This document shows, in pieces, positions 1 to 25,917 of a stretch of 64,000 bases of DNA. The stretch lies in NCBI GenBank assembly GCA_013286795.1, contig JABDFA010000001.1, positions 104,970 through 168,969 on the forward strand, given 5' to 3'. This DNA comes from Candidatus Babelota bacterium. GTDB taxonomy: Bacteria > Babelota > Babeliae > Babelales > JABDEC01. The notes under the pieces were generated by a model. The model was not told where the DNA came from. It was given only the letters and a program-made list of their open reading frames with translations, and did not search any database. The translations under genes were made by a program, and so were the position numbers. Within the stretch, counting starts at the first letter, position 1. Every line of letters starts with the position of its first letter.

Positions 1-1
1 T

Positions 2-721
2 GAGCATGCTTTAGATTCTGGACACGCAACAAAGTTGGGTGTTAATATTAATGATTTAATCATTTCCCAGCCAGATTATGGGGAGCAGGCTCTAGAGATT
101 GCAGAACTTTTGATCAGGTCAAATGCTATTGATATAATAGTTATTGACTCAGTTGCTGCGCTTGTTCCAAAGGCAGAACTTGAAGGAGATATGGGTGATG
201 TTCATATGGGGCTTCAAGCCAGATTAATGTCCCAAGCATTAAGAAAGCTTACTTCAATTGTTCATAAATCAAAAACTGTTTTGATTTTTATAAATCAAAT
301 TAGGCAAAATATAAGCAGTATGGCTTTTGGAAATAAAGAGACTACCACTGGTGGAAATGCTTTGAAATTTTATTCATCATTAAGATTAGATATTCGCAAG
401 ATTGCTTCTTTGAAAAAAGAAGAGGATCACTTTGGCAATAGGGTTTCTATTAAAGTTGTAAAAAATAAGATGGCTCCTCCTTTTAAGAAAGTTGAAGTGG
501 ATCTTTTATTTAATGAAGGTATAAGTCCTGAGTTAGAGCTTTTAGATGCGGCAATTAATTATAACATTATTAGTAAATCCGGATCTTGGCTTTCTTTTAA
601 AGGAAAGCAATTGGCTCAAGGTAGAGAACAAGCTTTAATTTATTTAAAGAGTAATAAAGAAATTACACAAGAGTTGCTTGGTTTAGTTAAAAATGAAATA
701 GAATCTGTTAAGGTATTATAA
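2..721 (+). CDS. recA: Recombinase RecA, C-terminal ~240 aa (5' end lies upstream of the window)
   Basis: The frame is open from base 2 ([33 protein letters not shown]). RecA core strings are present: [62 protein letters not shown]. The TTG at 35 in the ORF track is internal, not the start. Confidence 0.95.
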
Positions 722-756
722 TTGTTAGTTAATTTTATTAGTCTAGAAGGAACTTT

Positions 757-1299
757 GTGGCATTGAAGGATAACAAATCGCCATTGGTCAACGAAAAAAT
801 TCGTGTTGACAGGTTACAATTAATTACTCATGACGGCCAAAATATAGGCGTCGTTTCAAGAAATGAAGCTCTTCAAAGAGCAAGGGAGGCTGATCTTGAT
901 CTTGTTTTGATTTCCGAACAAGGTGGAGAAGGTTTTCCTGTAGCTAAAATTCTTGATTTCGGTAAAATTTTATATTCCAAAAAAAAGAAGGCGACCGAAG
1001 CTAAAAAGAAGCAAAAAGTTATTAAAATAAAGGAAATAAAAATTAGGCCCAAAATAGGCGAACATGATTTGCAAATTAAACTTAAGCAATGCATTCAATT
1101 TTTAGCCGAAGGCAAAAGAGTTAAGTTTACTTTAAATTTTAAAGGTAGAGAGGCGGCCACAAAAAATGAGGTGGGTCCTGCTTTATTTAATAAAGTAGAT
1201 TCTGCTTTTAAAGATGCCGCATTAAAGAATTTAGAAAATGAGCCGGATTCAAAAATGGGGTCAACTTGGTCAAGAATTTATTATTTAAAAGGTAATTAA
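757..1299 (+). CDS. infC: Translation initiation factor IF-3
   Basis: INEKIRVDRLQLI..G..GVVSRNEALQRAREADLDLVLIS, then a K-rich linker and KEIKIRPKIGEHDLQIK..FLAEGKRVKF, typical of the IF-3 N and C domains. GTG start at 757 with GAAGG 6 nt upstream; a non-AUG start is usual for infC. Conserved infC-rpmI-rplT order. Confidence 0.93.
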   Translation: MALKDNKSPLVNEKIRVDRLQLITHDGQNIGVVSRNEALQRAREADLDLVLISEQGGEGFPVAKILDFGKILYSKKKKATEAKKKQKVIKIKEIKIRPKIGEHDLQIKLKQCIQFLAEGKRVKFTLNFKGREAATKNEVGPALFNKVDSAFKDAALKNLENEPDSKMGSTWSRIYYLKGN

Positions 1300-1312
1300 C
1301 GGGAATATCAAT

Positions 1313-1507
1313 ATGCCAAAAATGAGAACCAAATCTTCAGCAAAGAAAAGATTTACCAAAACAGCTTCAGGAAAGATAAAATATTCCAGGGCTTTTAGGC
1401 GTCATTTATTAACAAAAAAAACAAGGTCCAGAAAAAGAGCATTAAGGGGCGGCGGTTACATCGCTGATGTTGATCATAATAGAGTTGCCCGTTGTTTGCC
1501 ATATTAA
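1313..1507 (+). CDS. rpmI: 50S ribosomal protein L35
   Basis: 64-aa basic protein MPKMRTKSSAKKRFTKTASGKIK..RAFRRHLLTKK, lying between infC and rplT. Confidence 0.93.
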   Translation: MPKMRTKSSAKKRFTKTASGKIKYSRAFRRHLLTKKTRSRKRALRGGGYIADVDHNRVARCLPY

Positions 1508-1533
1508 TTTTTAATAAATTTGAAGGATAAATC

Positions 1534-1881
1534 ATGACAAGAATTAAACGAGGTACGTCTACCAAAAAAAGACATAAACGCGTATTTAAGCAAACAGAAG
1601 GTTTTTGGGGACAACGCAAAAATGTTTACAAGCGAGCTAAGGATACTTTAATTCGCGCTTGGGCCTTTGCTTTTAAGGGCAGAAAATTAAAAAAACGTGA
1701 CATGAGGTCACTGTTTATTGTTCGAATTAATGCTGCTTCCAGGGTCCACGGTTTATCGTATAATCAGTTTATACATGGCTTAAAACAAGCCAATGTTGAA
1801 ATTGATAGAAAAATGTTAAGCCAATTAGCTATTTTTGAACCAAATGCTTTTTCCAAATTAGCTAGTTTAGCAAAAAAATAA
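1534..1881 (+). CDS. rplT: 50S ribosomal protein L20
   Basis: MTRIKRGTSTKKRHKRVFKQTEGFWGQRKNVYKRAK...INAASRVHGLSYNQFIHGLK is a typical L20 sequence, last gene of the infC operon. Confidence 0.95.
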   Translation: MTRIKRGTSTKKRHKRVFKQTEGFWGQRKNVYKRAKDTLIRAWAFAFKGRKLKKRDMRSLFIVRINAASRVHGLSYNQFIHGLKQANVEIDRKMLSQLAIFEPNAFSKLASLAKK

Positions 1882-1910
1882 TTTTTATTGACCCAATATA
1901 TTAAAGAATA

Positions 1911-1956
1911 GTATACCTAACATTGAAGCTAAATTTAATGTTAGGTATATTTTTTA
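1911..1956 (+). terminator. Rho-independent terminator of the infC-rpmI-rplT operon
   Basis: A 13-14 bp perfect stem (1912-1924 TATACCTAACATT pairs with 1937-1949 AATGTTAGGTATA) is followed by T-run 1950-1955. It lies 30 nt after the rplT stop. Confidence 0.8.
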
Positions 1957-1968
1957 GGGAGAGTAAAA

Positions 1969-2211
1969 ATGGAACAATTAAGTATATTAGAAAAAAAGGT
2001 ATTAGAGCTTGTTGAAACAATCAAAAAACAAAAACAAGAAATTGTATTGCTGTCTGAAGAAAATATAAAGCTAAAGAATGATATAGAAAATCTTGAAACA
2101 GCTTTGCTTTCTGATCAAAATGAAGTTGGTCAAGAAAAAGAGCTAACTAAGCTTGTAGTTGAAGGTTTAATTAAGGATATAGATGCCTTAGTTTCCAGTG
2201 AGCAGAGATAA
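1969..2211 (+). CDS. Small coiled-coil protein, ZapB-like (cell-division associated) by position and composition
   Basis: 80 aa with heptad-like leucine/isoleucine spacing (LEKKVLELVETIKKQKQEIVLLSEENIKLKNDIENLE). RBS AGGGAGAG. The stop overlaps the zapA-like start (ATGA at 2208-2211). Confidence 0.45.
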   Translation: MEQLSILEKKVLELVETIKKQKQEIVLLSEENIKLKNDIENLETALLSDQNEVGQEKELTKLVVEGLIKDIDALVSSEQR

Positions 2212-2489
2212 TGATCAGTGATTCTAAAAAACATCAAATAGAAATTCTTGGGCAAAATTATACTATTATAAGTGATGAAACTGATTCTGATATAGAAAAA
2301 ATTGTTTATATGGTTAATTCTTTTTTAAAAGAAATTATTTCCAAATCTCCTCAAATAGATCACACTAAAGCAATAGTTTTTGTTGCTTTAAAATTGGCAA
2401 ATAATACAATTAAACTGGAAAATTTAATTTCTAATTATGAAGAATATAATACAAAAATCATTGGAAGAATTGAGCAGGAACTATATTAA
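2211..2489 (+). CDS. zapA: Cell division protein ZapA-like
   Basis: 92 aa. HQIEILGQNYTIISDETDSDIEKIVYMVNSFLKEI..AIVFVALKLANN matches the ZapA pattern (V.I.G..Y.i....e.yl..lA..vn). Translationally coupled to the upstream coiled-coil gene. Confidence 0.7.
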   Translation: MISDSKKHQIEILGQNYTIISDETDSDIEKIVYMVNSFLKEIISKSPQIDHTKAIVFVALKLANNTIKLENLISNYEEYNTKIIGRIEQELY

Positions 2490-2606
2490 ATAATTAATTA
2501 GGTGTTATTTTTCAACTTTTTAGTTAAAAATCATGTTCAGTACACTTTTAATATTGTATAATATAAGTTACCGAACTTATATATTTATACTTATTAGGAA
2601 ATACTC

Positions 2607-4172
2607 ATGATTGAATTAATGTATACTATAATAGGAACTTGTTTCGCTTTATTGACCCTCATAATATTATTTTTTGTCTTTTACTTGAAAAGACGTGTAA
2701 ATTATGCAAATAAACTTATATCTGAGTCCAAATCTGTTTCAGATAAAATTAAAAAAGATATAGAAGAAGAGCGTAAGGATTCCCTTGCCAAAATTAAAGA
2801 TGAAATACATAAGCGTAAAAAAGATTTTGAACTTGAGATGAAGCGTGAGCGTATTGATATTGAACGCTTGCAAAATAGATTAAACCTAAAAAATGAAGAA
2901 TTAGATCAAAAGGAAAAGCGAATTGATGGGTTAAGCAGCGATCTTCAACAAAAGGAAAGGGAACTTATTCGTACCTCTGACATGCTTAGGGTAAATGAAA
3001 ATAAATTAAAGTCTCTTTATAGTGAATATGTTACAAAATTGGAAAATGTTAGTGGCATGACAAGAGAAGAGGCTAAAGTAGATTTATTTCATTCATTAGA
3101 ATCAGAAATTCATCATTCTAATGAAAAATGGATTCAAAAAATAGAGGAAGAGGCCAGACAGGAAGCAAAGGAAAGATCTATTCAAATTATTGTTACTGCC
3201 ATGCAAAGGTATACGGCCGATCAAGTGACAGCCAACTCTTCATCTGTTGTTCATTTACCTAATGAAGAAATGAAAGGCAGAATAATAGGTAAAGAGGGTC
3301 GAAATATTAAATCTCTTGAAATGGCTACCGGTATGGAATTTATTATTGGAGAAACTCCAGAAGTTATTACTATATCAGGTTTTAATCCTATAAGAAGAGA
3401 AATCGCAAGGCGCACATTGGAGAAACTTATAGCTGATGGTAGAATTAATCCTACAAGAATTGAAGAGACCGTTGCCCAATGTGAAAAAGAAATGGATGAA
3501 ATGATTCAGGAGTTTGGTAAAGAAGTTATTATGCACTTTAATTTGCAAGGAGTAAATCCTGAAATTGTTAGTCTATTGGGTAAATTACATTTCAGAACTA
3601 GTTATACGCAAAATGTATTAGAGCACAGCAAAGAAGTAGGAATTTTTGCTAGGATGATAGCTCAAGATTTAGGACTAGATGGGGAAATAGCTTTAAGAGC
3701 AGGATTATTTCATGATATAGGCAAGGCTGTAACATCTGAAGTGGAAGGACCGCACGCATTAATTGGTGCAGATATAGCAAAAAGGTGTGGAGAGGATCCT
3801 AGAGTTGTTAATGCAATTGCTGCACATCATGAAGAAGTGCCTTTTTTATCTGTATATGCTCCTATCGTAGTTATAGCTGATACAATTTCTGCATCTAGAC
3901 CGGGTGCTCGACGTGAAACTCTTACTGCGTATGTCAAAAGATTGGAAAAACTTGAAGAGATAGGTAAATCTTTTTCCGGTGTAAAAAAAGTTTATGCTTT
4001 ACAAGCAGGGCGTGAGGTAAGAATAATAGTAGAAGAAGATTATATTGATGATGAAAAGGCAATGATTTTAGCTCGTGACATAGCAAAAAAGATAGAAAAA
4101 GAGATGACTTTTCCAGGGCAAATAAAAGTAAACGTAATTCGAGAAAAACGATCTATAGAATATGCAAGGTAA
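2607..4172 (+). CDS. rny: Ribonuclease Y (N-terminal TM helix, coiled coil, KH domain, HD domain)
   Basis: TM helix at the N-terminus. KH motif GRIIGKEGRNIKSLEMATG. HD domain LEHSKEVGIFARMIAQDLG...GLFHDIGKA...AAHHE. Ends KVNVIREKRSIEYAR, typical of RNase Y. Confidence 0.93.
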   Translation: MIELMYTIIGTCFALLTLIILFFVFYLKRRVNYANKLISESKSVSDKIKKDIEEERKDSLAKIKDEIHKRKKDFELEMKRERIDIERLQNRLNLKNEELDQKEKRIDGLSSDLQQKERELIRTSDMLRVNENKLKSLYSEYVTKLENVSGMTREEAKVDLFHSLESEIHHSNEKWIQKIEEEARQEAKERSIQIIVTAMQRYTADQVTANSSSVVHLPNEEMKGRIIGKEGRNIKSLEMATGMEFIIGETPEVITISGFNPIRREIARRTLEKLIADGRINPTRIEETVAQCEKEMDEMIQEFGKEVIMHFNLQGVNPEIVSLLGKLHFRTSYTQNVLEHSKEVGIFARMIAQDLGLDGEIALRAGLFHDIGKAVTSEVEGPHALIGADIAKRCGEDPRVVNAIAAHHEEVPFLSVYAPIVVIADTISASRPGARRETLTAYVKRLEKLEEIGKSFSGVKKVYALQAGREVRIIVEEDYIDDEKAMILARDIAKKIEKEMTFPGQIKVNVIREKRSIEYAR

Positions 4173-4178
4173 GCGTTT

Positions 4179-5009
4179 ATGAAAAAAAACATTAAGATTT
4201 TGTTTATTGGAGATGTTGTTGGTCAATTGGGTCAAGCTGTCTTTCAAAAACATATAGACCGTATTAAAAAACAGTATGATATTGATGGTATTATTGTCAA
4301 TGGTGAAAATAGTCATTCATTGGGACGCGGTATTACACCACGGATTGTAAATTTCTTTAAGCATAATGGTGTAAATGTTATAACAAGTGGAAATCATATT
4401 TGGGCCCGAAAAGAAATTATACCTTATTTAACTCAACATACTGATCTTTTGCGTCCAGCAAATTTTCCTAGCTCTTGTCCAGGTGTAGGTGTAACAACAT
4501 TTAATTGTGCCGGTATAGTTGTCGGCATAATAAATTTGCAGGGTCGCATTTTCATGAAAGAATATGTAGATTGCCCATTTCGTACCGCTGATACGCATCT
4601 GACATATTTAAAATCAAAAACAGATATTATATTAGTTGATTTTCATGCGGAAGCATCATCTGAAAAAATAGGTATAGCTTTATATCTAGATGGTAGAGTT
4701 AGCGCCGTTGTCGGCACTCATACGCATGTTCAGACAGCAGATGAAAGAGTGTTGCCAAAAGGAACAGCTTTTATAACCGATTTGGGAATGTCTGGAGCTC
4801 TGAATTCAATGATAGGCATGAAAAAAGATTCAGTGTTGCCCAATTTCTTAACACAAATGCCTTCAAAATTTGAAGTTGATATTGTCCCTCCAGCGCTTTT
4901 AAGTGGCGCTGTAATAGAAATTGATTCAGATTCCGGAAAGTCTCTCAATATTCAACGTATTAGAATTATTGATGAGAACATTCATGTTGATTCTGCAATT
5001 TCTGATTAA
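4179..5009 (+). CDS. ymdB: YmdB-family metallophosphoesterase (2',3'-cyclic-nucleotide phosphodiesterase family)
   Basis: MKKNIKILFIGDVVGQLG...IVNGENS..GRGIT...ITSGNHIW...VDFHAEASSEK...GTHTHVQTADERVLP.GTAFITDLGMSG carries the calcineurin-like metal ligands in YmdB order. It lies directly after rny, as in Firmicutes. Confidence 0.85.
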   Translation: MKKNIKILFIGDVVGQLGQAVFQKHIDRIKKQYDIDGIIVNGENSHSLGRGITPRIVNFFKHNGVNVITSGNHIWARKEIIPYLTQHTDLLRPANFPSSCPGVGVTTFNCAGIVVGIINLQGRIFMKEYVDCPFRTADTHLTYLKSKTDIILVDFHAEASSEKIGIALYLDGRVSAVVGTHTHVQTADERVLPKGTAFITDLGMSGALNSMIGMKKDSVLPNFLTQMPSKFEVDIVPPALLSGAVIEIDSDSGKSLNIQRIRIIDENIHVDSAISD

Positions 5010-5018
5010 ACTTCAAAT

Positions 5019-6203
5019 TTAACTTATTATACAACCAGATTCTTTTTGTTTAGATACTGGTTGGGTTAACCAAGATTCTTGTTCATGTTTAAACTTAATA
5101 AATTCTTCATCAGGAAGATCTAAAGACATTGCTTGATTGCTCCATATTTTTATTGAGTTATCAAACGATCCAGACGCTAATTTATTTTCTGACAGTAAAC
5201 ATAATGAAGAAACTAAACTATCATGACCTTTTAAAGTAGCTATGCATTTATGAGAAGCAAGATCCAATATTTTTATTGTTTTATCAAAGGAAGCAGCAGC
5301 TAATTTATTTCCTGATAATAAGCATATCGAATAAACTGTACTATAAAGACCTTCTAAAGTAGATATGCATTTATGAGAAGCAAGATCCCATATCTTTATT
5401 GTTCCATCTATAGAATTAGAAGCTAATCTGTTTCCTGGTAATACACATACTGAATAAACCCCACCTTTATGATCCTTAAGGGTTTGTTCACAATCGCCAG
5501 AATTTAAATCCCATATTTTTATTGTTTGGTCCCAAGAGGCAGAAGCTAATTTATTTCCTGGTAATAAACATACTGAATAAGCACAATCTTTATGACCTTT
5601 TAAGGTAGCCATACATTTATGAGAAACAAGATCCCATATTTTTATTTTATTATCAGAATCTCCAGAGGCTAATTTATTTTCCGATAATGCACATATTGAA
5701 TGAACCCTATGATTATGGCCTTTTAAAGTGTATATGCATTTGTGAGAAGTAAGATCCCATATTTTTATTGTTTGGTCCCAAGAGGCGGAAGCTAATTTAT
5801 TTTTTGGCAATAGACATATTGAATTGATCAAGTCAGTATGACCTTCCAAAGTAGCTACACATTGATTCGAATTAAGGTCCCATATTTTTATTGTTTTATC
5901 TTTAGAAGCAGAAGCTAATTTATTTCCTGGTAATGCACATACTGAACTAATGTCATGTTCATGACCTGTTAAAGTTCGTTCACATTCCCACTCATTTTTA
6001 ATCGGATCATATTCTTGCACGAGTTTAGCTAAATCAGGTATTAAATGCTCTCTTAAGCAAGCGCTGCGATACTCATTTATTCTGGTTTCTAATGCAGAAG
6101 GGGTCTCTTTTTTTTCTTTTAACTCAGCTGCATTTATGCAAAATGGCAGAGCTAGAATTAATAGTTTTATTTTTAATACTCTATCTATTTTAATATTCTC
6201 CAT
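5019..6203 (-). CDS. Exported 7-blade WD40 repeat protein with an N-terminal HLIPDLAKLVQEYDP motif and a C-terminal CaaX box (CIIS)
   Basis: Seven 42-aa repeats of the form GH....V.S.C.LP.NKLASAS.D.TIKIWDL.S..C..TL. The leader MENIKIDRVLKIKLLILALPFCINA is signal-peptide-like. I place the start at ATG 6203-6201, overlapping the upstream stop as TAATG, rather than the track start at 6221. Confidence 0.85.
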   Translation of the reverse strand: MENIKIDRVLKIKLLILALPFCINAAELKEKKETPSALETRINEYRSACLREHLIPDLAKLVQEYDPIKNEWECERTLTGHEHDISSVCALPGNKLASASKDKTIKIWDLNSNQCVATLEGHTDLINSICLLPKNKLASASWDQTIKIWDLTSHKCIYTLKGHNHRVHSICALSENKLASGDSDNKIKIWDLVSHKCMATLKGHKDCAYSVCLLPGNKLASASWDQTIKIWDLNSGDCEQTLKDHKGGVYSVCVLPGNRLASNSIDGTIKIWDLASHKCISTLEGLYSTVYSICLLSGNKLAAASFDKTIKILDLASHKCIATLKGHDSLVSSLCLLSENKLASGSFDNSIKIWSNQAMSLDLPDEEFIKFKHEQESWLTQPVSKQKESGCIIS

Positions 6204-7363
6204 TATTTTTGGGTTACCCAAGATTCTTTTTCATGCATAAATTTAAGAAATTCTTCATCTGTAGGTCCTGAAGTTATTACTGGGTTGCTCCATATTTTTA
6301 TTGTTTTATCAAAGGAAGCAGAAATTAATTTATTTTCTGGAGATGCACATAGTGATGTAGGTTGACCTTTATGACCTTCCAAAGAAGTAGTAACTTGGCG
6401 TTTATTAAGATCCCATATCTCTATTATACCACTAGTCCGATATGAAGAAGCTAATTTATTTCCTGGTAATGAACATATTTTTAAAATTAGGATAGCATCG
6501 CTTTGTAAAGCAACCTCACATTTACCAGAATCCGACTTCGCTGGAGCTTCGTCGGACAGGGTTAAATTCCATATTATTATTATCCTACCAGCACTAGAAG
6601 CTAACTTATTTCCTGGCAATACGCACATTGATTCCACACGTCCTGTACGTAGTGCAATTATACATTTATTTGAATTCAAATCCCATATTCTTATTTTTCC
6701 ATCCTGAGTAGTATAAGCTAACTTATTTCCTAGTGATACGCTACATACTGAATCAACTTGTGTATCGCTTTCTAAAACAGTTGTACATTTATTTAAAGTA
6801 AGGTCCCATATTCTTATTGTTTTATCAGCAGAAGCAGAAGCTAATTTATTTCCTGGTAATGCACATACTGAATTAACAGAATCTTCATGACCAGTAAGAG
6901 TTTGTTCACATTTGCCGGAGGTTAAATTCCATATCTTTATTATCTTTGTTGTTTCGCCCCAAGAAACAGAAGCTAATTTATTATCTGGCAATGCGCATAC
7001 TGATCGTACTTTATGATCCTCTAGCGTTTGTTCACATTTACCAGAATTGAGATCCCATATTTTGATTGTATTATCTTGAGAAGCAGAGGCTAATTTATTT
7101 CCTGGTAATAAACATACTGAAATAACACCATATGTATGACCTTCTAAAGTTCGTTCACATTCCCACTTATCTTGAATTGGATCATATTCTTGTACAAGCC
7201 TAGCCAAATTAGGAATTAAATGCTCTCTTAAACAAGCATCACGATGCTCATTTATTCTGGTGACCAAGGCAGAAGGGGTCTCTTTTTTTTCTTTTAACTC
7301 AGTTGCGTTTATGCAAAATGGCAGAGCTAGAATTAACAGGTTTATTTTTAATATTGTATTCAT
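6203..7363 (-). CDS. Exported WD40 repeat protein, a more degenerate paralog of 5019-6203, with an N-terminal HLIPNLARLVQEYDP motif
   Basis: The first ~75 aa are near-identical to the downstream paralog (LLILALPFCINATELKEKKETPSAL..RINE.R.ACLREHLIP.LA.LVQEYDPI...WECERTL.GH). WD blades with the NKLASAS.D.TI[KR]IW[DN]L pattern follow, several of them eroded. Confidence 0.85.
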   Translation of the reverse strand: MNTILKINLLILALPFCINATELKEKKETPSALVTRINEHRDACLREHLIPNLARLVQEYDPIQDKWECERTLEGHTYGVISVCLLPGNKLASASQDNTIKIWDLNSGKCEQTLEDHKVRSVCALPDNKLASVSWGETTKIIKIWNLTSGKCEQTLTGHEDSVNSVCALPGNKLASASADKTIRIWDLTLNKCTTVLESDTQVDSVCSVSLGNKLAYTTQDGKIRIWDLNSNKCIIALRTGRVESMCVLPGNKLASSAGRIIIIWNLTLSDEAPAKSDSGKCEVALQSDAILILKICSLPGNKLASSYRTSGIIEIWDLNKRQVTTSLEGHKGQPTSLCASPENKLISASFDKTIKIWSNPVITSGPTDEEFLKFMHEKESWVTQK

Positions 7364-12253: not shown

Positions 12254-13159
12254 ATGGATTATTTGACCAAGTTTGAGATATATTTACTTACTGAAAAGCG
12301 TGCAGCTCGTAACACTTATACAGCTTATATCACTGATATTAAAAAGTTTCTAAACTTTTTAAAGAGCCAGAATATAGATTTACTTAATGCGCAGGCACAA
12401 GAACTAAAAAAATATTTACTAATTTTGAAAAAAGAAGAAAATCTGAGTCCTCGTAGTTTGGCGAGAAATGTTTCTTCCTTAAAAGTATTTTATGGATTCT
12501 TACATAAAAATCACAATATAACCAATATCTCTACTAATTTAGTGTTTCCTAAAATAGAAAAAAGATTGCCTAATTATTTGTCTGAAGAAGAAGTTGAAAA
12601 ATTACTAGAATTTTCAAAGCAGGATTTAACTGATATTGGTATTAGAAACAAGATAATGGTATATATTCTATATGTAACTGGGATAAGAATAACAGAACTT
12701 GTAAATTTAAGGGTATCAAATATCCAATTTGATACCGGTTTTCTTTTAGTGAATGGTAAAGGAGGAAAAGATCGCTTGGTTCCTTTACCAAAAGAAGTAT
12801 CTGAAGAACTTCAAGGATATTTAAACACTACTCACTCTAAATTAATAGGCAGAGAAAAATACCATTCTACAGATTATCTTTTTCCTACACTTTATGGAAA
12901 AGTAATCAAACCTTTATCAAGACAATCATTCTGGTTGTTTTTAAAAAATTTAGCTAAACAAAGTGGTATAGAAAAAAATATTTCTCCTCATAAATTACGT
13001 CATTCTTTAGCAACCCATTTGCTCAAAAAAGGGGCCAATCTGAGATCTTTACAAATGCTTTTGGGGCATGAATCTCTTTCCACTGTTCAAATTTATACTC
13101 ATGTTGAAACGGAATTTTTAAGAAAGGTGTATGATAAGTTTCATCCTAGATCGTCTTAA
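12254..13159 (+). CDS. Tyrosine recombinase, XerC/XerD family
   Basis: N-terminal SAM-like domain (ARNTYTAYITDIKKFLNFL). Catalytic region with R (TGIRITELVNL), HKLRHSLATHLL and LLGHESLSTVQIYTHV (catalytic Tyr). ~300 aa. Confidence 0.85.
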   Translation: MDYLTKFEIYLLTEKRAARNTYTAYITDIKKFLNFLKSQNIDLLNAQAQELKKYLLILKKEENLSPRSLARNVSSLKVFYGFLHKNHNITNISTNLVFPKIEKRLPNYLSEEEVEKLLEFSKQDLTDIGIRNKIMVYILYVTGIRITELVNLRVSNIQFDTGFLLVNGKGGKDRLVPLPKEVSEELQGYLNTTHSKLIGREKYHSTDYLFPTLYGKVIKPLSRQSFWLFLKNLAKQSGIEKNISPHKLRHSLATHLLKKGANLRSLQMLLGHESLSTVQIYTHVETEFLRKVYDKFHPRSS

Positions 13160-14408
13160 CGCAATTTTATTGATATTTCTATCTACACTACTATTAAATT
13201 TGGCTTTAATCTTTCCATATCGATTTTATTTTTTAGTTTTTATTTATTTGATTCCCTTATTATATTTAAACGAAAAAAAAAAGCTTAATATGTATAAAGG
13301 GATTTTTTGGGGGATTTTTTTTTATACTATACATTTTTATTATCTATTTATATTAATATATGAAAAGGGGGAAGGGCAATTTAGACTTTTTTTTATACCA
13401 ATTATTATATTATATTTTTCTATATATTCCGGTATATGGTTTTTCTTATCATCACAATTAAGTTATCTTATAAAAAACAGGTCTCTTGGGTTAATTATAT
13501 CAACCTATTTGTACATATGGTTTATTTATAATTATATATTTTGGATTTTTCAAGAAAAGTCTGGATATGTTTTTTCTTTACCTTGTTTGCCATTAGTACA
13601 TAACAGTAGATTTTTAAGCTATTTGAGTATTTGTGGATTGGGATTTTGTATCTGTTATATATTGATATTAAATTTATTCTTATATTTTAGCACTAGAAAC
13701 AAAAAAATATTAGTCATATGTCTAATGTTTGTAATTATTTTTTTATATAATCCATTGGACCTAAGAGTTGAAGAAGATCCTTTAAAAACCTATACTTTAA
13801 AAGTAAATGCAAAAAATAAAAATCCATATGAGCTCGCCCAATCAATAAAATGGGCAATTATAGATTTAGCTAATAAAATAGATTCTGAGCCTAAAGTTAT
13901 TTTGATGCCAGAATCATCTTTTCCTTTTGCTCTTAATGATTATATCGAAGTAATAGAATGGTGGTATTATGATCTTAAAGATAAAACAATTCATATTATT
14001 TTGGGATCACATCGTAGAGAAGGGGCTTTGCTTTTTAATACCGTATATCATTTATATGAAGGCAAGATAATAAATTTTTATGATAAAACAAATTTAATGT
14101 TTTTTTCTGAAAAAATACCAACCTTATGGAAAAAATTATATATATTTAATGATCTCTTTTTAAAAGATTGCCAAGAATTTTCTTCTGGAGATAAAAATAG
14201 CTATTTTAACATTGGAGAGATTAAATCAAGTGTTTGTATTTGTTCCGATTTATTTCTCAATAAACAAATACAAACTGATTGTGATATTATTTTGCTGTTC
14301 ATGAATTATAGTTGGTTTAGATTAAAATATATAAGAAGGTTAATAGATTTTTATGTTATTTTAAAAAGAAACCAGTTAAATAGGCCTTTAATTTGTGCAA
14401 ATTTCTAA
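13131..14408 (+). CDS. lnt: Apolipoprotein N-acyltransferase-like (polytopic membrane N-domain plus CN-hydrolase domain)
   Basis: The N-terminal ~200 aa are highly hydrophobic. The C-domain has Lnt-like catalytic contexts VILMPESSFPF (Glu), YDKTNLMFFSEKIP (Lys, compare Y.K..LVPFGE) and SVCICSDLF (Cys). It is shorter than typical Lnt and the start is uncertain (29-nt overlap with xer). Confidence 0.6.
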   Translation: MISFILDRLNAILLIFLSTLLLNLALIFPYRFYFLVFIYLIPLLYLNEKKKLNMYKGIFWGIFFYTIHFYYLFILIYEKGEGQFRLFFIPIIILYFSIYSGIWFFLSSQLSYLIKNRSLGLIISTYLYIWFIYNYIFWIFQEKSGYVFSLPCLPLVHNSRFLSYLSICGLGFCICYILILNLFLYFSTRNKKILVICLMFVIIFLYNPLDLRVEEDPLKTYTLKVNAKNKNPYELAQSIKWAIIDLANKIDSEPKVILMPESSFPFALNDYIEVIEWWYYDLKDKTIHIILGSHRREGALLFNTVYHLYEGKIINFYDKTNLMFFSEKIPTLWKKLYIFNDLFLKDCQEFSSGDKNSYFNIGEIKSSVCICSDLFLNKQIQTDCDIILLFMNYSWFRLKYIRRLIDFYVILKRNQLNRPLICANF

Positions 14409-18843: not shown

Positions 18844-19695
18844 CTATAAAGTTTGTTGTTTTTCTTTTGGACAAACAGCATACTCTGAAACTATCTCAGC
18901 CAATTCTGGCAATAAATATTCAGATTCAACAATTTTTTTAACATCTTGTCTTAATTTCTCTCTTTTTTCATATTCTTTTTTTATTAAGTCTTCTATAGAT
19001 TTATGTTTTACTATTTTTGCTATACCTAAAGCTGTTTGACCTCTATAATTTGTTAAATATAAAGAAGCTCCAGCTTCTAATAATAACTTTACTATGGCTT
19101 CTTGATTAGATACCGCAGCGAGCATTAAAGCTGTGTAGTCTCCATCATTTTGAATATCAGGATCAGCGCCATTTTCTAATAATACCTTTATTATATTTTC
19201 ACTATCTTTTATTATTACAGCCATTATTAAAGCTGTATCACCTCTTTTATTTTTATAATTTATATCTGCATTTCTCTGAATAGCACCAAGAACCAAAGAT
19301 ATATCTCCATTGGATGCGCCACTGAAAAGCATTTTATTTGCTTCATGATGCTGTCTTCCTTTTTTATATTCGTTTTCTATTAACAGTTTTATAGGAGCTG
19401 TTTTTGCTAAATCTAAAGCCGTTTTGCCCTTATTATTTTTTAAATCTAGAGAGACTCCAGAAGCTAATAATAGCTTTACCATGGCTTCATAAGAACTAAT
19501 TACAGCTTCCATTAAAGCTGTATAACCGTTTCCATCTGCAGTATTTATATCTGCGTTTTGCGCAAGAGCTTCTTGAACAAGTTTTAGATCGCCGCTTCTA
19601 GCACCTTTAATAAGCATTTTATCAGCATCGCTCATGCTATAAATTGCCCCAATAAATCCCAAGCAAATAAATGTGAATAATAATTTAAATTTCAT
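18844..19695 (-). CDS. Leader-bearing ankyrin-repeat protein (family member 2), two ANK blocks, C-terminal module ...KKEYEKREKLRQDVKKIVESEYLLPELAEIVSEYAVCPKEKQQTL
   Basis: Leader MKFKLLFTFICLGFIGAIYSM. Repeated G.TALM.AV......VKLLLE.GA..D. units. GGAGG RBS in the 9-bp spacer to the upstream gene. Confidence 0.9.
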   Translation of the reverse strand: MKFKLLFTFICLGFIGAIYSMSDADKMLIKGARSGDLKLVQEALAQNADINTADGNGYTALMEAVISSYEAMVKLLLASGVSLDLKNNKGKTALDLAKTAPIKLLIENEYKKGRQHHEANKMLFSGASNGDISLVLGAIQRNADINYKNKRGDTALIMAVIIKDSENIIKVLLENGADPDIQNDGDYTALMLAAVSNQEAIVKLLLEAGASLYLTNYRGQTALGIAKIVKHKSIEDLIKKEYEKREKLRQDVKKIVESEYLLPELAEIVSEYAVCPKEKQQTL

Positions 19696-19704
19696 GTCAA
19701 CCTC

Positions 19705-20331
19705 CTACAAAGTTCGTTTTTCTTTTGGACAAACAGCATACTCTGAAACTATCTCAGCCAATTCTAGAACTATATCAGCTAAATCTGGCAATAGATATTT
19801 GTCAGTAATTTCTTTATAAACATCATTTCTGAATTTTTCTCTTCTTGCATGTTCATTTTCTATTAGATCTATCATAGCAAGATATCTTCTTCTAGATCTA
19901 TATCTATATTCTTCTTTTTTTACTATATCTAAAGCTGTTTCTCCCTCACTATTTTTTAAATCTAAAGAAGCGTCATTTTCTAACAACAGCTTTGCTATAT
20001 CTTCTTTGGCAAAGAATGCAGCATTCATCAAAGCTGTATCGCCATTGTTATCTTGAATATCAGGATTAGCGCCATTATTTAATAACAACTTTACTATATA
20101 TACAGAACCATTAACTATAGCTTTATGTAAGGCTGTATAACCGTATCTATTTTGATAGTTTACATCAGCCTTATTTTTAAGGGCCTTTAGAACAAGTCTG
20201 ATGTCGCCTTCCTCAGCACCCATAATGAGCATTTCATTAGGAGTTTCATGTATGATGAATGTTTCTTCCATTGTATAAAGTGACCCAATAAACCCCAAAG
20301 ACAAAATTGAGAATAATAATTTAAATTTCAT
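19705..20331 (-). CDS. Leader-bearing ankyrin-repeat protein (family member 3) with a chimeric, partly duplicated C-terminal motif LLPDLADIVLE-LAEIVSEYAVCPKEKRTL
   Basis: Leader MKFKLLFSILSLGFIGSLYTM. ANK repeats (YTALHKAIVNGSVYIVKLLLNNGANPDIQD, DTALMNAAFFAKEDIAKLLLENDASLDLKN). The tail DNA at 19705-19765 is identical to the tail of 20482-21252 except one base. Confidence 0.9.
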   Translation of the reverse strand: MKFKLLFSILSLGFIGSLYTMEETFIIHETPNEMLIMGAEEGDIRLVLKALKNKADVNYQNRYGYTALHKAIVNGSVYIVKLLLNNGANPDIQDNNGDTALMNAAFFAKEDIAKLLLENDASLDLKNSEGETALDIVKKEEYRYRSRRRYLAMIDLIENEHARREKFRNDVYKEITDKYLLPDLADIVLELAEIVSEYAVCPKEKRTL

Positions 20332-20340
20332 GTTAACCTC

Positions 20341-20472
20341 CTATAAAATTTCTTTAGATATATCTCCATTGGATGCGCCCAAAATAAGCATTTTATTAGG
20401 AGCCTGACCCATGCTATAAATTGCCCCAATAAATCCCAAGCAAATAAATGTGAATAATAATTTAAATTTCAT
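20341..20472 (-). pseudogene. 43-codon remnant of an ANK-family gene (leader plus first half-repeat, then stop)
   Basis: The minus strand reads MKFKLLFTFICLGFIGAIYSMGQAPNKMLILGASNGDISKEIL*. The leader DNA is identical to that of 18844-19695, and GASNGDIS matches the internal string of that gene. It keeps the same GGAGG spacer but is too short for an ANK fold. Confidence 0.7.
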
Positions 20473-20481
20473 GTCAACCTC

Positions 20482-21252
20482 CTACAAAGTTCGTTTTTCT
20501 TTTGAACAAACAGCATACTCTGAAACTATCTCAGCCAATTCTGGCAATAAATATCCAGATTCAACAATTTTTTTAACATCTTGTCTTAATTTCTCTCTTT
20601 TTTCATATTCTTTTTTTATTAAGTCTGCTATAGATTTATATTTTTTTCTTTTTGCTATATCTAAAGCAGCTTCCCCCTTATTATTTTTTAAATCTAAAGA
20701 GACGCCAGCTTCTAATAATAGTTTTACTATTAGTGGATAATTATTATATACAGCCCACATTAAAGCTGTGTCACCTGTTTTGTCTTTAATATCAAGATTA
20801 ACGCCTCTATGCAGTAGTAGCTCCACAATAGATTTACAATTATCAGGTATAGCCCACATTAAAGCCGTAGCGTTGTTTTCACCGCCTTTAATATCAGGGT
20901 TGGCACCTCCGTCTAACAATAGTTCCACTATATTGTCATGGCGACACCTATGAGATGCAGCTAAAATTAAAGCTGTGTCGTCTTCATCATTTTGAAGATC
21001 AGGATCAGCGCCATTTTCTAGTAATAGTTTTACTATGGATTCATGACCATTATCTGCAGCTATCATTAAAGCTGTAAAGCCATATATATTTTTATAATTT
21101 ACATCAGCTTTCTCTTTAAGGGCTTCTTGAACAAGTTTGATGTCGCCTTCCCCCTCGGCGCCTCTAATGAGCATTTCATTGGGATCCTGCATACTGTAAA
21201 TTGACCCAATGAATACTAAAGATAGAAGCGATATTAATAATTTAATTTTCAC
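20482..21252 (-). CDS. Leader-bearing ankyrin-repeat protein (family member 4) with C-terminal LLPELAEIVSEYAVCSKEKRTL
   Basis: Leader MKIKLLISLLSLVFIGSIYSM. Five to six ANK units (FTALMIAADNGHESIVKLLLENGADPDLQN and others). The 3' 134 bp is near-identical to 18871-19004. Confidence 0.9.
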   Translation of the reverse strand: MKIKLLISLLSLVFIGSIYSMQDPNEMLIRGAEGEGDIKLVQEALKEKADVNYKNIYGFTALMIAADNGHESIVKLLLENGADPDLQNDEDDTALILAASHRCRHDNIVELLLDGGANPDIKGGENNATALMWAIPDNCKSIVELLLHRGVNLDIKDKTGDTALMWAVYNNYPLIVKLLLEAGVSLDLKNNKGEAALDIAKRKKYKSIADLIKKEYEKREKLRQDVKKIVESGYLLPELAEIVSEYAVCSKEKRTL

Positions 21253-21323
21253 AATAACCTCCCTATATTAGTAGAATCATATATATATAATATTATCAAA
21301 TAGAAAATGTACAGTCAAGGCTG

Positions 21324-22691
21324 TTATTCATTGTCTATAAACTTAGTAAGTTCTTTCTGGAATTCTAAATAAAGTGTACCTGTAGGACCATTACGTTGTT
21401 TACCTATTATTAATTCTGCCATAGATGGGTTTTCTGTATCTTGATTATAAACAACATCTCTGTATAAAAACATTATTAAATCAGCGTCTTGCTCAATAGC
21501 ACCTGATTCTCTTAAATCAGAAAGCATGGGTCTTTTATCCATACGAGCATCTACGGCCCTAGAAAGTTGTGAAAGAGCTACAATGGGTATTTTTAATTCT
21601 TTTGCCAACCCTTTTAAGGCCCTAGAAATCTCTGATACCTCCTGATGTCTATTTTCATGCTTTTTGGTTGAATGTAATAATTGAAGATAATCTATCACTA
21701 ATAACTGTAAATTGTGATCAACTTTTAACTTTCTAGCTTTGGCCCTAAGATCCATTATACTCAAGGCTGGGGTATCATCAATAAATAATTTATAGTTTGC
21801 TAATTTAGCAGCTACACTTGTAAGTTCGATCCATTCATCTGAAGATATTGTCGCATTTCTTATTTTATGCAAGGAAATATTTGATTCTGTCGACAATAAC
21901 CTCAAGGTTAATTGTTCTGCTGACATTTCAAGAGAAAATACTCCTACCGTAATACCATTAAGAGCTGCATTGGTTGCAATATTTAAGGCTAGGGAAGTTT
22001 TTCCCATAGAGGGTCTTGCTGCTAATATTATAAGATCCCCATTTTGCATACCCGAGGTAATTTCATCTAATTTTTTAAATCCAGAAGAGATCCCGGTTAT
22101 TCCTCTACTGTGAGCCTTAATATCTGAAAGATGAGAGAACGTCTTTTTTAACCATATATTTAATTGAACAAAAGACTGATTAGAACGCTTGTTGGAAATT
22201 CTAAATATTATTTTTTCTGCTGTATCTAGTACCGAGTCAATTTCTTCATCATTCTGAGAATAACAATTAGATATGATCTCGGTGGCTGATCCAATCAATT
22301 CTCTTAAAACAGACTTTTCTTTGATGATTTTTGCATGTTGCTCTACAAGACCAGATAAATGAATATCTTCTTGCAAAGAGATTAGATATACTAGCCCACC
22401 AACGAAATCTATTTGTTTTTTTTTTTCTAATTCGTCTTGCAATGTAACAAAATCAATTCTTTTCCCCTTTTGCGATAATTCTAACATAATTTCATATATT
22501 ATTTTATGACTTATATTATAAAAATCTAAAGGCAAGAGAATTTCGCCAACTTGATTAAAATTAGAATCATTTAATAAAATGGCACCTAAAACAGCTTTTT
22601 CTGCATCAACATTTGATGGAAGTTGTTTGCCCAAAACAGACTCTATTACATCGTTAGAGTTATTTTTTTTTGGATGAAATGTTTTAAGCAT
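21324..22691 (-). CDS. dnaB: Replicative DNA helicase DnaB
   Basis: LPSNVDAEKAVLGAILL (N-domain), Walker A AARPSMGKTSLALN, Walker B LLVIDYLQLL, then SRALKGLAKELKIPIVALSQLSR..E.R.DKRPMLSDLRESGAIEQDAD. Confidence 0.95.
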   Translation of the reverse strand: MLKTFHPKKNNSNDVIESVLGKQLPSNVDAEKAVLGAILLNDSNFNQVGEILLPLDFYNISHKIIYEIMLELSQKGKRIDFVTLQDELEKKKQIDFVGGLVYLISLQEDIHLSGLVEQHAKIIKEKSVLRELIGSATEIISNCYSQNDEEIDSVLDTAEKIIFRISNKRSNQSFVQLNIWLKKTFSHLSDIKAHSRGITGISSGFKKLDEITSGMQNGDLIILAARPSMGKTSLALNIATNAALNGITVGVFSLEMSAEQLTLRLLSTESNISLHKIRNATISSDEWIELTSVAAKLANYKLFIDDTPALSIMDLRAKARKLKVDHNLQLLVIDYLQLLHSTKKHENRHQEVSEISRALKGLAKELKIPIVALSQLSRAVDARMDKRPMLSDLRESGAIEQDADLIMFLYRDVVYNQDTENPSMAELIIGKQRNGPTGTLYLEFQKELTKFIDNE

Positions 22692-22696
22692 TCTTT

Positions 22697-23140
22697 TTAT
22701 TCTGAAATAACTTTAAGTAAAAATTTAGGTTTCAATTGGTTAGATAACTTTACAGTAACCTCAAATGAGCCTTGTTTTTTTATAGGCTTTTCTAGTTCAA
22801 CTTGATTTTTGGATATTTTTATTCCTTCTGTATCCAATAAATTTACTATGTCAGAAGAATTAATGGCACCATACAACTTTTCTTTATCATGCATTTTTCG
22901 CTTTAATGTTATCTTTAATGCTTTTATTTTTTCTGCAAGCATAGAAGTTTTGGTTGCTACTGCTTCTTTTCTATTTTCAATAGTTTTGACTTTATTAAGA
23001 TAAAGTTGCTCATTTTCATTTGTAATTACTACACCTAGTTTTTTTGGAACTAAAAAATTGGTGGCGTAACCTTCTTTAACTTTTATAATTTCTCCGGGTA
23101 TGCCTACTCTTTCTACATCTTTTAATAAAAATACTTTCAT
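22697..23140 (-). CDS. rplI: 50S ribosomal protein L9
   Basis: MKVFLLKDVERVGIPGEIIKVKEGYATNFLVPKKLG is the canonical L9 N-domain. 147 aa, directly upstream of dnaB. Confidence 0.9.
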   Translation of the reverse strand: MKVFLLKDVERVGIPGEIIKVKEGYATNFLVPKKLGVVITNENEQLYLNKVKTIENRKEAVATKTSMLAEKIKALKITLKRKMHDKEKLYGAINSSDIVNLLDTEGIKISKNQVELEKPIKKQGSFEVTVKLSNQLKPKFLLKVISE

Positions 23141-23224
23141 GGTTATCCTATAATTAATAATTTAATTAATTATAGTATACTCAAAAAAAGCAATTTTTTA
23201 AAATTTATACTAATTTATTCTAGG

Positions 23225-24337: not shown

Positions 24338-24346
24338 ATTAACCTC

Positions 24347-25888: not shown

Positions 25889-25917
25889 ATTCTAAAAATT
25901 CTAAGACTATGTTAGCT

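Follow-up and report, generated by a model that had tools for sequence, protein, structure and literature searches.

Does a bacterium that lives inside protists mark one of its own proteins for farnesylation by its host? The question is raised by a gene for a WD40-repeat protein (WD40 protein 1) in the 64,000-nucleotide stretch of DNA analysed here (the window), whose translation ends in Cys-Ile-Ile-Ser (CIIS), that is, in a candidate CaaX prenylation box. Bacterial effectors that the host prenylates are an established finding in Legionella and in a few other pathogens that inject proteins through type III–VII systems. To our knowledge, bacteria have no CaaX prenyltransferases of their own, and we know of no farnesylation outside the eukaryotic cytosol, so that a CIIS tail, if used, is a natural probe of the step that carries bacterial proteins there. 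Dependentiae, the phylum to which the locus is assigned below, are widespread and almost uncultured parasites of protists. Were the tail used, it would give a concrete function to one of the phylum's many anonymous repeat proteins and would be evidence for the assumed action of Dependentiae signal-peptide proteins in the host cytosol. Mimicry of host prenylation substrates is known (the AnkB type), and the Dependentiae case is apparently unreported: a literature search found no report joining CaaX boxes or host prenylation with Dependentiae, and "prenyl" does not occur in the text of PMC4776705 or PMC4378268.

Results

A CIIS tail behind a WD40 propeller

A sequence-only reading of the locus had placed a CIIS-stop at the minus-strand end of WD40 protein 1, and this is borne out both by re-reading the DNA and by a second assembly. 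The reverse complement of 5019..5150 ends in GAA TCT GGT TGT ATA ATA AGT TAA (E-S-G-C-I-I-S-stop), and the C-a-a-X pattern fills exactly the final four residues. A Logan contig from run SRR8433578 (L165) that is 100% identical to positions 1..5537 of the window encodes the same tail; because the two assemblies are independent, the tail is not an artefact of a single one. The ORF list also gives an alternative start (TTG at 6221), but the ATG used here is likelier since it overlaps the upstream stop as TAATG. Coordinates of all features are collected in Table 1.

Table 1. Features of WD40 protein 1 and its neighborhood (window coordinates)
Feature	Position	Strand	Basis and remarks
WD40 protein 1 (394 aa)	5019..6203	minus	ORF list and translation from the first ATG; tail CIIS
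Predicted Sec-type signal peptide, residues 1–26	6126..6203	minus	sequence reading and crude heuristic
N-module, one long helix, residues 35–65	6009..6101	minus	AF2; bears motif HLIPDLAKLVQEY
Seven-bladed WD40 beta-propeller, residues 73–355	5139..5987	minus	AF2 pLDDT 96–99; best Foldseek matches are WD40 propellers
C-terminal helix, residues 366–380 (DEEFIKFKHEQESWL)	5064..5108	minus	AF2; conserved among paralogs in alignment
Disordered hydrophilic linker, residues 381–390 (TQPVSKQKESG region)	5034..5063	minus	AF2
CaaX box Cys391-Ile-Ile-Ser394	5022..5033	minus	TGT ATA ATA AGT; Cys at 5031–5033, Ile-Ile-Ser at 5022–5030
Stop codon TAA of WD40 protein 1	5019..5021	minus	9 bp from the stop of a convergent ymdB-like gene (4179..5009)
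WD40 protein 2 = P0001 (386 aa), tandem paralog	6203..7363	minus	tail ...ESWVTQK, without CaaX; stop overlaps start of WD40 protein 1 (TAATG)

Pfam finds seven WD40 repeats in WD40 protein 1 (E 2.4e-59), the AF2 model has a mean pLDDT of 89.7, and Foldseek places it among WD40 structures with E-values of ~1e-30. The mature protein contains 17 cysteines, about two per blade. Downstream of the propeller, the last helix stops at residue 380 and pLDDT falls below 50 at residues 384–394. The linker TQPVSKQKESG agrees with the PrePS rule (i.e., ~11 flexible, hydrophilic residues before the Cys), and the description of this run as mildly basic is correct yet weak, with two Lys and one Glu.

The N-module motif is common to WD40 protein 1 and the ankyrin family of the window. 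A search of 1.84 billion proteins with a profile of the module recovered few true family members and found it only in WD40 protein 1's family; most matches were Kelch repeats matching EYDPxxxxW, which we dismissed as spurious. Pfam found no F-box in the N-terminal 81 residues of WD40 protein 1 even at E ≤ 1. An F-box reading of this module and of the L037 ankyrin family was rejected (no Pfam support, one sub-threshold match at E 0.07), as was an F-box/WD40 substrate receptor of the beta-TrCP/Fbw7 type, AF2 giving a single long helix instead of a three-helix F-box.

CIIS as a farnesyltransferase substrate

With Ser as X, the box is of the farnesyltransferase type, as the sequence-only reading had proposed, and published predictor and reporter values for the tetrapeptide agree. 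In yeast, Ras2 ends in CIIS, and there this CaaX box is farnesylated, cleaved, and required for membrane association (PMC9927470). Placed in a Ydj1 reporter, it is 100% prenylated, and it is positive by PrePS (1.281), SVM, RRS (EF 9.0), and the Ydj1 heat-map score (HM 4.07) (PMC10320760 Table 3), all of which are values for the tetrapeptide and not for WD40 protein 1's own linker.

An intracellular producer and a predicted Sec-type export signal

The RNase Y of the window is 57–80% identical to 80 loci; most of these bear the name Babeliales, Dependentiae, or TM6 in their titles, and the others are unclassified MAGs or have different labels. The producer of WD40 protein 1 is thus a member of the Dependentiae (TM6/Babeliales), a phylum living inside eukaryotic cells. 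Dependentiae are obligately intracellular in protists, type II is the sole secretion system detected in them, and most of their ankyrin effectors bear signal peptides (PMC4378268, PMC6561590, PMC4776705). Babela grows inside a vacuole (PMC4378268) and Chromulinavorax is located in the host cytoplasm (PMC6561590); for both, signal-peptide ankyrin and WD40 proteins have been argued to act in the host cytoplasm (PMC6561590, PMC4378268).

The N-terminus of WD40 protein 1 reads as a signal peptide of the usual layout, with an n-region containing K/R, an h-region (LLILALPF), and a c-region (INA|AE), and it agrees with the Dependentiae pattern published in PMC6561590 and PMC4378268. The predicted export signal, which the sequence-only reading had overlooked, is hence of the Sec type, not type III/IV.

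Presence and absence of the box among paralogs

WD40 proteins 1 and 2 are 56–58% identical and can be aligned through ...ESW[VL]TQ. At this point the tandem paralog ends as ...WVTQK, 12 residues short, and WD40 protein 1 runs on as PVSKQKESGCIIS, so the alignment upholds the earlier claim that the paralog lacks the box. The prenylation reading had been made to depend on conservation of the box in at least one ortholog; CIIS recurs in the paralog P0004, which is 50% identical to WD40 protein 1 and ends in ...NLYSSLPNCIIS. P0004 is carried by a contig of 177,881 bp, a length also on record for the contig of WD40 protein 2. Between these two proteins, the linker is unalignable (3/14 identities, ~21%, with unequal length) and the box is identical at 4/4 positions. 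The WD40 genes diverge fast (they are 65–74% identical between strains that share 98.4% identity in DnaN), which makes the retention of CIIS stand out. Both CIIS copies apparently come from one genome, however, so common ancestry contributes to the identity of the box.

At least four paralogs can thus be compared, with the box on WD40 protein 1 and P0004 and none on WD40 protein 2 and P0090. WD40 protein 2 falls inside the clade in a neighbor-joining (NJ) tree, which makes the box parsimoniously ancestral and lost in this protein. About 15 other full-length family tails (including P0146, P0154, P0191, WD40 protein 2, P0090, and the eight-gene L163 array) are without it: the CaaX box is lineage-specific, not a trait of the whole WD40 family. 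In a related strain (L083), the locus is syntenic and the ortholog of WD40 protein 2 likewise lacks the box (...ESWLTQK); the ortholog of WD40 protein 1 is covered to residue 322, where the contig ends. A full-length search with WD40 protein 1 returned paralogs from one genome and generic WD40 proteins only, and WD40 protein 1 itself is absent from the protein collection. A profile of its last 70 residues, with matches apparently limited to about 1.75 times the query length, gave nothing but short unrelated fragments, and exact-sequence look-ups of P0004 and P0090 matched no contig.

Terminal CaaX boxes in Dependentiae

That a four-residue motif may be due to chance and takes its weight from context had been conceded at the outset, and composition makes the same point. 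In Dependentiae proteins, the chance rate is ~0.13% for canonical C-[AVILM]-[AVILM]-X and 0.29% for a permissive pattern, which corresponds to 2–4 CaaX ends per genome. A lone instance is therefore not significant by itself, and the significance of the CIIS tail comes from its conservation in a paralog and from enrichment in signal-peptide proteins.

The search for CaaX enrichment that had been suggested for this genome's ORFs was carried out on the window together with the 80 Dependentiae loci (1,371 ORFs in all), with the same pattern at offset positions as the control. An excess appears at the exact C-terminus and is limited to those 373 ORFs whose N-terminus has a signal-like segment, a subgroup set by a crude heuristic of our own after the hits had been seen: 4 strict boxes were observed versus 0.35 per control offset (p = 5e-4), and 6 permissive ones versus 0.9 expected (p = 3e-4). 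With WD40 protein 1 left out, p is 0.006 (strict) and 0.002 (permissive). ORFs without a signal segment show no excess (1–2 CaaX ends versus 1.4–3.9 expected).

A second group of boxes is found on the complete Dependentiae chromosome OY970169.1, where five signal-peptide ankyrin paralogs, 35–40% identical, all end in CC[LM]Q behind divergent linkers; in this comparison, 6/120 matches carry a terminal CaaX box versus 0–1 at shifted positions. A further signal-peptide protein, with the tail ...SECLIM, adjoins the family member P0191 and is probably from the same genome. Three other candidates were set aside: window ORF 13131..14408 (tail CANF), an Lnt-like membrane protein whose non-canonical box we treat as chance; P0009 (tail KKNKQCRVM), carried by contig L001 of uncertain taxonomy; and the homolog pair L045/L047, in which CTIS on one member and no box on the other indicate no conservation.

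Discussion

A proposed route from the signal peptide to host membranes

Taken together, the substrate box, the intracellular producer, the conservation in P0004, the disordered tail, and the enrichment favor the reading that WD40 protein 1 is a secreted, eukaryote-like Dependentiae effector that exploits the host prenylation machinery, and we hold this to be fairly probable. In such a scheme, the Sec signal peptide read from the sequence would take the protein out of the bacterial cytoplasm, and the literature suggests that it could then be released from the cell, either by the type II secretion system of Dependentiae or inside outer-membrane vesicles. By analogy with yeast Ras2 CIIS, farnesyltransferase in the protist cytosol would add a C15 farnesyl group to Cys391, after which Rce1 would cut off -IIS and ICMT would methylate the new C-terminus. 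The lipid and a flexible linker of ~12 residues would tether the propeller to host endomembranes on their cytosolic side, where it may serve as a protein-docking platform. Because the linker is weakly basic and there is no second lipidation site, ER/Golgi-type or pathogen-proximal membranes are predicted, not the plasma membrane. With two paralogs carrying the box and at least two lacking it, box-bearing and box-free paralogs plausibly have different sites of action within the host.

It is possible, if somewhat doubtful, that host prenylation is a general address label across Dependentiae, in which case a subset of secreted WD40 and ankyrin proteins may be tagged by CIIS, CC[LM]Q, CLIM, and polybasic-CLVS. 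As CaaX boxes can be functional only if Sec/type II-exported proteins reach the host cytosol, they would be a built-in reporter of the effector-delivery route. If true, Dependentiae would diversify effector localisation by gaining or losing the box among the members of tandem paralog arrays.

Alternative explanations

The tail could instead be a functionless motif, a Cys at −4 and two Ile being products of drift in a genome rich in AT and in Ile, and P0004 having them through common descent. Such an origin would fit the expectation of 2–4 boxes per genome (0.13–0.29% of proteins), the absence of the box from most family members, and the presence of CIIS on the WD40 family in one genome only, but we regard it as unlikely: the box is identical (4/4) beside a linker of unequal length and ~21% identity in fast-diverging genes, the enrichment is limited to signal-peptide proteins, and a different Dependentiae genome has independently kept CC[LM]Q on five of its ankyrin paralogs. 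Nor does an origin in a eukaryote explain the tail well. The proposal that the gene derives from a eukaryotic CaaX-bearing WD40 protein, with the box as an unused leftover, draws on P0074, whose WD40 domain is 48% identical over 71% of WD40 protein 1, whose tail is ...NSRCVIQ, and whose contig also bears eukaryote- or virus-like genes (e.g., Not3 and RINGv). A relic of this kind would not outlast 50% divergence in two paralogs with randomised linkers, and only the bacterial family has the N-module and the signal peptide, which makes it highly improbable; an acquired box would in any case still be usable and hence compatible with host prenylation.

A further alternative concerns delivery. If the exported protein stays in the periplasm, the outer membrane, or the vacuole lumen, its tail never meets host farnesyltransferase, and the terminal Cys would serve otherwise (in a disulfide or a metal contact) or not at all. 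The 17 cysteines, which by our reasoning are better suited to a reducing cytosol than to an oxidising periplasm, argue against such retention, as do the published arguments that, in Babela and Chromulinavorax, ankyrin and WD40 proteins with signal peptides act in the host cytoplasm; retention also leaves unexplained why canonical CaaX boxes recur precisely as the last four residues of such proteins. We therefore consider it quite improbable, even though the N-terminal segment resembles a Sec signal peptide, type II is the only system known in the phylum, and no route across the vacuolar membrane is known. Use of the box by the host prenylation machinery remains our preferred reading.

Comparison with known systems

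In the G-protein beta-gamma dimer, too, a long N-terminal helix and a 7-bladed WD40 propeller occur together with a CaaX box, which is prenylated there and sits at the C-terminus of the gamma subunit. G-beta chains are among the Foldseek matches of WD40 protein 1, but we rejected a G-beta-gamma mimic: the Pfam WD40_Gbeta score (109.2 bits) is below the 150-bit cutoff, and the structural match to G-beta is no better than that to WDR5, LIS1, or designer propellers, so the resemblance is loose only.

Within the phylum, the effector candidates of Babela massiliensis and Chromulinavorax destructans share with WD40 protein 1 a signal peptide and eukaryote-like repeats, and secretion into the host has likewise been proposed for them; prenylation or CaaX boxes are nowhere mentioned in those papers (PMC4378268, PMC6561590). 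Yeast Ras2 (…CCIIS), an otherwise unrelated protein, has the identical tetrapeptide, which is farnesylated, cleaved by Rce1, and methylated (PMC9927470). In place of the adjacent palmitoylated Cys that directs Ras2 to the plasma membrane, WD40 protein 1 has a Gly and only two nearby Lys, and by this analogy it should be found on internal membranes, as is Ras2-SCIIS.

Legionella pneumophila AnkB (F-box, ankyrin repeats, and the CaaX box CVLC) and the Pel CaaX effectors are similar to WD40 protein 1 in joining eukaryote-like repeats to a CaaX box in an intracellular bacterium, one that infects amoebae in the case of Legionella. Host FTase, RCE1, and ICMT lipidate AnkB and so anchor it to the pathogen vacuole on the side that faces the cytosol (PMC2916131). 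In contrast, Dependentiae are not Gammaproteobacteria, and WD40 protein 1 has WD40 repeats instead of F-box and ankyrin and bears a predicted N-terminal Sec-type signal peptide where AnkB relies on Dot/Icm type IV translocation, so that its delivery would differ from type IV injection. In both systems, the box is present or absent between close homologs: AnkB of the Paris strain has lost its CaaX box by a frameshift (PMC5506055), in parallel to WD40 proteins 1 and 2, and with this paralog pair, one bearing the box and one lacking it, nature offers a clean experiment on how effectors are relocalised.

A Ras2-type CaaX box on one of two tandem WD40 proteins

Read directly on the minus strand, protein 1 ends E-S-G-C-I-I-S-stop, exactly as the sequence-only reading had described it, that is, in a putative Cys-aliphatic-aliphatic-X (CaaX) prenylation signal, CIIS. 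The same tail is present in a Logan assembly (L165, run SRR8433578) that matches window 1..5537 at 100% identity. Protein 2, the tandem paralog (56–58% identity), can be aligned through ...ESWVTQ and ends at K where protein 1 runs on PVSKQKESGCIIS, and the paralog thus lacks the box, as had been claimed. Because the protein 2 stop and the protein 1 start overlap as TAATG (window 6201..6205), the pair has the look of an operon; the overlap suggests translational coupling of the box-bearing and box-less proteins.

Positions of the WD40 pair, of structural elements in the protein 1 model, and of nearby genes
Feature	Position	Strand	Source	Remarks
CIIS codons and stop (TGT ATA ATA AGT TAA)	window 5019..5033	minus	sequence	GAA TCT GGT just 5'
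Protein 1 gene	window 5019..6203	minus		394 aa, from first ATG
Protein 2 gene (paralog)	window 6203..7363	minus		386 aa
Low-confidence N-terminal helix	protein 1 residues 4-17		AlphaFold2	
Single long helix	protein 1 residues 35-65		AlphaFold2	
Seven-bladed propeller	protein 1 residues 73-355		AlphaFold2	pLDDT 96-99
C-terminal helix	protein 1 residues 366-380		AlphaFold2	
Disordered tail, CaaX box included	protein 1 residues 381-394		AlphaFold2	
Five tandem ankyrin-repeat genes	window 18844..25276	minus		also 29038..29784 and L165:4970-5611
Three small genes, prepilin/pseudopilin-like N-termini	window 25442..26771	minus		
626-aa signal-peptide protein, no Pfam match	window 26832..28712	plus		adjoins pseudopilin-like genes

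Yeast Ras2 ends in the same CaaX box, CIIS; there the box is farnesylated and proteolysed, and membrane association requires it (PMC9927470). In a systematic yeast study with a Ydj1 reporter, prenylation of CIIS was 100%, with a PrePS score of 1.281 (cutoff above −2), a positive SVM call, an RRS enrichment of 9.0 (cutoff 3), and a heat-map score of 4.07 (cutoff 3) (PMC10320760, Table 3). PrePS needs ∼11 flexible, small or hydrophilic residues ahead of the Cys (PMC1175975); in protein 1 these are TQPVSKQKESG, and they are disordered in an AlphaFold2 model built on 41 sequences (mean pLDDT 89.7). The Ser at position X indicates farnesyltransferase (FTase). Since no palmitoylatable Cys adjoins the box and Lys occurs only twice in the tail, protein 1 compares best with Ras2-SCIIS, a form found on internal membranes (PMC9927470).

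Protein 1 has seven WD40 repeats (Pfam, E 2e-59), and Foldseek matches to the model are generic WD40 propellers only (e.g., WDR5, LIS1, G-beta, and Fbw7). Residues 1–26 have the layout of a predicted Sec signal peptide (a basic n-region, a ∼10-residue hydrophobic core LLILALPF, and INA|AE), a call made by reading the sequence and by our own heuristic, not a trained predictor; the core is too short for a membrane anchor. The long helix carries the motif HLIPDLAKLVQEY; it was considered as an F-box and rejected, with no Pfam match at E <= 1 and one helix only.

The box is shared with a paralog in a rapidly diverging family

Three database relatives lie on a 177,881-bp contig: P0001 (identical with protein 2), P0004, and P0090. 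P0004, 50% identical to protein 1, ends ...ESRENPWIKNPDKNLYSSLPNCIIS; past the conserved helix its linker is not of the same length as that of protein 1 and matches it at 3 of 14 aligned positions, yet the final four residues are the same in both. A neighbor-joining tree has the topology ((p1,(L083 copies, p2)),P0004),P0090, L083 being a related-strain locus, and on it the simplest history is that the common ancestor of protein 1, protein 2, and P0004 already had the box and that the line leading to protein 2 lost it. The L083 ortholog of protein 2 ends ...WLTQK; the L083 copy of protein 1 is cut off by the contig end, ahead of the tail. Window and L083 are 98.4% identical in DnaN and 93.1% in RecF, and their WD40 orthologs (window 5019..7363 and L083:6086-8187) only 74% and 65%; the two L083 copies share 71% identity. 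Such values point to fast divergence of the tandem pair or to gene conversion within it.

Conservation in homologs, one of the checks suggested in the sequence-only reading, gives a mixed picture: P0004 has the identical CIIS, but the box is absent from protein 2, from P0090, and from relatives on other contigs that share the segment N-terminal to the propeller (P0146, P0149, P0154, P0191, the L163 array, and the partial L164 gene), and so is not family-wide. The two CIIS copies seem to belong to a single genome. Box-less P0090, P0154, P0191, and L164:1-1272 have in common a C-terminal motif, ...[KR]xLN[KD]ALDxYDxx (LNDALDxYDxx), that might serve as a different kind of C-terminal signal. On L163:95-11306, assembled by Logan from the run that also contains the window's organism (SRR8433578), lie at least eight tandem family genes (signal peptide, N-terminal segment, and degenerate propeller) with very diverse tails, one of them also with ankyrin repeats.

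Further WD40 genes were seen elsewhere. L001:5766-13970 (an ENA contig of 324 kb, 44% G+C) has six consecutive WD40 genes with signal-like N termini and an internal IPxVIxxLIxxY motif, followed by a giant NACHT-WD40 gene; one of the six, P0009, ends ...PLTKKNKQCRVM, a basic stretch and then a CXXX box. L082:4217-5935 encodes a 572-aa coiled-coil and WD40 protein (P0074) ending ...NSRCVIQ, whose WD40 domain matches 71% of protein 1 at 48% identity; its contig also bears eukaryote- or virus-like genes (Not3, RINGv), and P0074 may represent a donor-like relative that has a CaaX box itself.

CaaX ends appear in excess among proteins with a signal-like N terminus

From Dependentiae amino-acid composition, 0.13% of proteins are expected to end in a strict CaaX box (C-[AVILM]-[AVILM]-X) and 0.29% in a permissive one. 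The search took in 1,371 ORFs (100 aa or longer) of the window and of 80 Dependentiae loci (∼1.5 Mb), with 60 control offsets. Proteins with a signal-like N terminus and no other TM segment (n = 373) showed an excess: four strict boxes at the exact C terminus against 0.35 per offset (maximum 2; Poisson p 5e-4) and six permissive against 0.9 (maximum 3; p 3e-4), or three and five without protein 1 (p 0.006 and 0.002), p values that are indicative only, as this subgroup was set by our crude heuristic after the hits were seen. Proteins with no signal-like segment (n = 902) showed none, with one strict and two permissive boxes against 1.4 and 3.9 (no p value).

Effector-like matches include a signal-peptide ankyrin protein of L037 ending ...KQSGCCLQ, an L069 protein ending ...KEKKENCCIQ, and an L075 protein with a K-Ras-like end, ...KKKEKIREKKHSRGCLVS. 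The last (L075:19832-21553, from another Dependentiae genome) is a 573-aa signal-peptide protein with a K-Ras-like polybasic stretch and CaaX box, ...RDKKKEKIREKKHSRGCLVS; the other loci yielded no homolog of it. A search with the L037 protein, from a complete 1.42-Mb Dependentiae chromosome (OY970169.1), returned four further signal-peptide ankyrin paralogs there (P0268, P0269, P0270, and P0274; 35–40% identical) with divergent linkers and a conserved box (...KTPSCCMQ, ...TDSNCCMQ, ...KSSGCCLQ, and ...KSSNCCLQ). The box is terminal in 6 of 120 matches, compared with 0–1 at each of 11 shifted positions. In the Ydj1 heat map, CCLQ scores 4.59 and CCMQ 4.78. Two shorter tandem paralogs (P0276, P0277) are without the box. 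At least five CC[LM]Q ankyrin paralogs in one genome (L037:13332-17495 and the four proteins just named) are the strongest sign that CaaX boxes are under selection in Dependentiae. A signal-peptide protein ending ...KTSNSECLIM adjoins P0191, which NCBI/JGI/Logan provenance suggests is from the same genome as the window.

Genomic setting

The window's housekeeping genes (RNase Y, YmdB, RecF, DnaN, and others) are bacterial, at ∼30% G+C. Its RNase Y is 57–80% identical to that of 80 loci, mostly titled Candidatus Babeliales, Dependentiae, or TM6, the rest being unclassified MAGs or otherwise labeled. All studied Dependentiae are obligate intracellular parasites of protists (PMC4378268, PMC6561590, PMC4776705). 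Babela massiliensis has several WD40 proteins, and type II is the only secretion system detected (PMC4378268); type II system and type IV pilus genes belong to the phylum core (PMC4776705). Chromulinavorax destructans, located in the host cytoplasm, has signal peptides on 44% of CDS and 78% of ankyrin proteins (PMC6561590). By these features, putative effectors of Dependentiae typically join a signal peptide to a eukaryote-like repeat domain, and the window follows suit with its tandem ankyrin array and its pseudopilin-like genes.

Four of the five array ankyrin genes have near-identical signal peptides (MKFKLLF...), and 20482..21192 has none from its first ATG. Most array proteins end in a module ...EYEKREKLRQDVKKIV..LLP[DE]LAxIVSEYAVCPKEK, whose core, [LI]P-[DES]-LAxhVxEY, is the same motif as the one that precedes the propeller in the WD40 proteins; it recurs on L164 (in the CLIM protein) and in WD40 genes on L001 and L163, and Pfam does not recognize this short module. 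One pseudopilin-like gene has a sub-threshold Pfam N_methyl match (19.6 bits, cutoff 21.2); with their 626-aa neighbor, these genes are possibly part of the core type II secretion or type IV pilus apparatus.

Discussion

A single CaaX case proves nothing; CIIS is lifted above chance by conservation in a paralog, the enrichment, and the independent CC[LM]Q case. The foremost objection to host prenylation is that protein 1 bears what is predicted to be a Sec-type signal and no injection-system signal, and the passage of a type II substrate to the host cytosol is particularly hard to picture from inside a vacuole such as that of Babela. A weak counterpoint is that the 17 cysteines of mature protein 1 (about two per blade) would suit the reducing cytosol better than the periplasm. 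With the Ras2 box, the disordered linker, the paralog box, and the enrichment, use of CIIS for host prenylation, as first proposed from the tail, is the best explanation and, in our judgment, moderately probable. CaaX boxes conserved on proteins with Sec signals would argue directly, from sequence, for an action of Dependentiae effectors in the host cytosol, and would offer a simple experimental handle on the way those effectors get there.

Prenylation is unmentioned in the core Dependentiae genome papers (PMC4378268, PMC6561590, PMC4776705). We found no literature pairing CaaX with Dependentiae and no report of CaaX mimicry in them; the mechanism itself is not new, being known from Legionella. 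To our knowledge, Dependentiae were not known as cultured organisms at the time of the CaaX survey by Price et al. That survey concerned pathogens that inject effectors through type III–VII systems. The closest known system to protein 1 is Legionella AnkB, which combines an F-box, ankyrin repeats, and the CaaX box CVLC and is farnesylated through host FTase, RCE1, and ICMT and anchored on the cytosolic face of the vacuole (PMC2916131). Protein 1 has the sequence-level features of this type and would work as AnkB does; functionally, the class is defined by delivery and lipidation. In the Paris strain, the AnkB homolog has lost its box by a frameshift (PMC5506055), a loss that parallels protein 1, with its box, and protein 2, without one.
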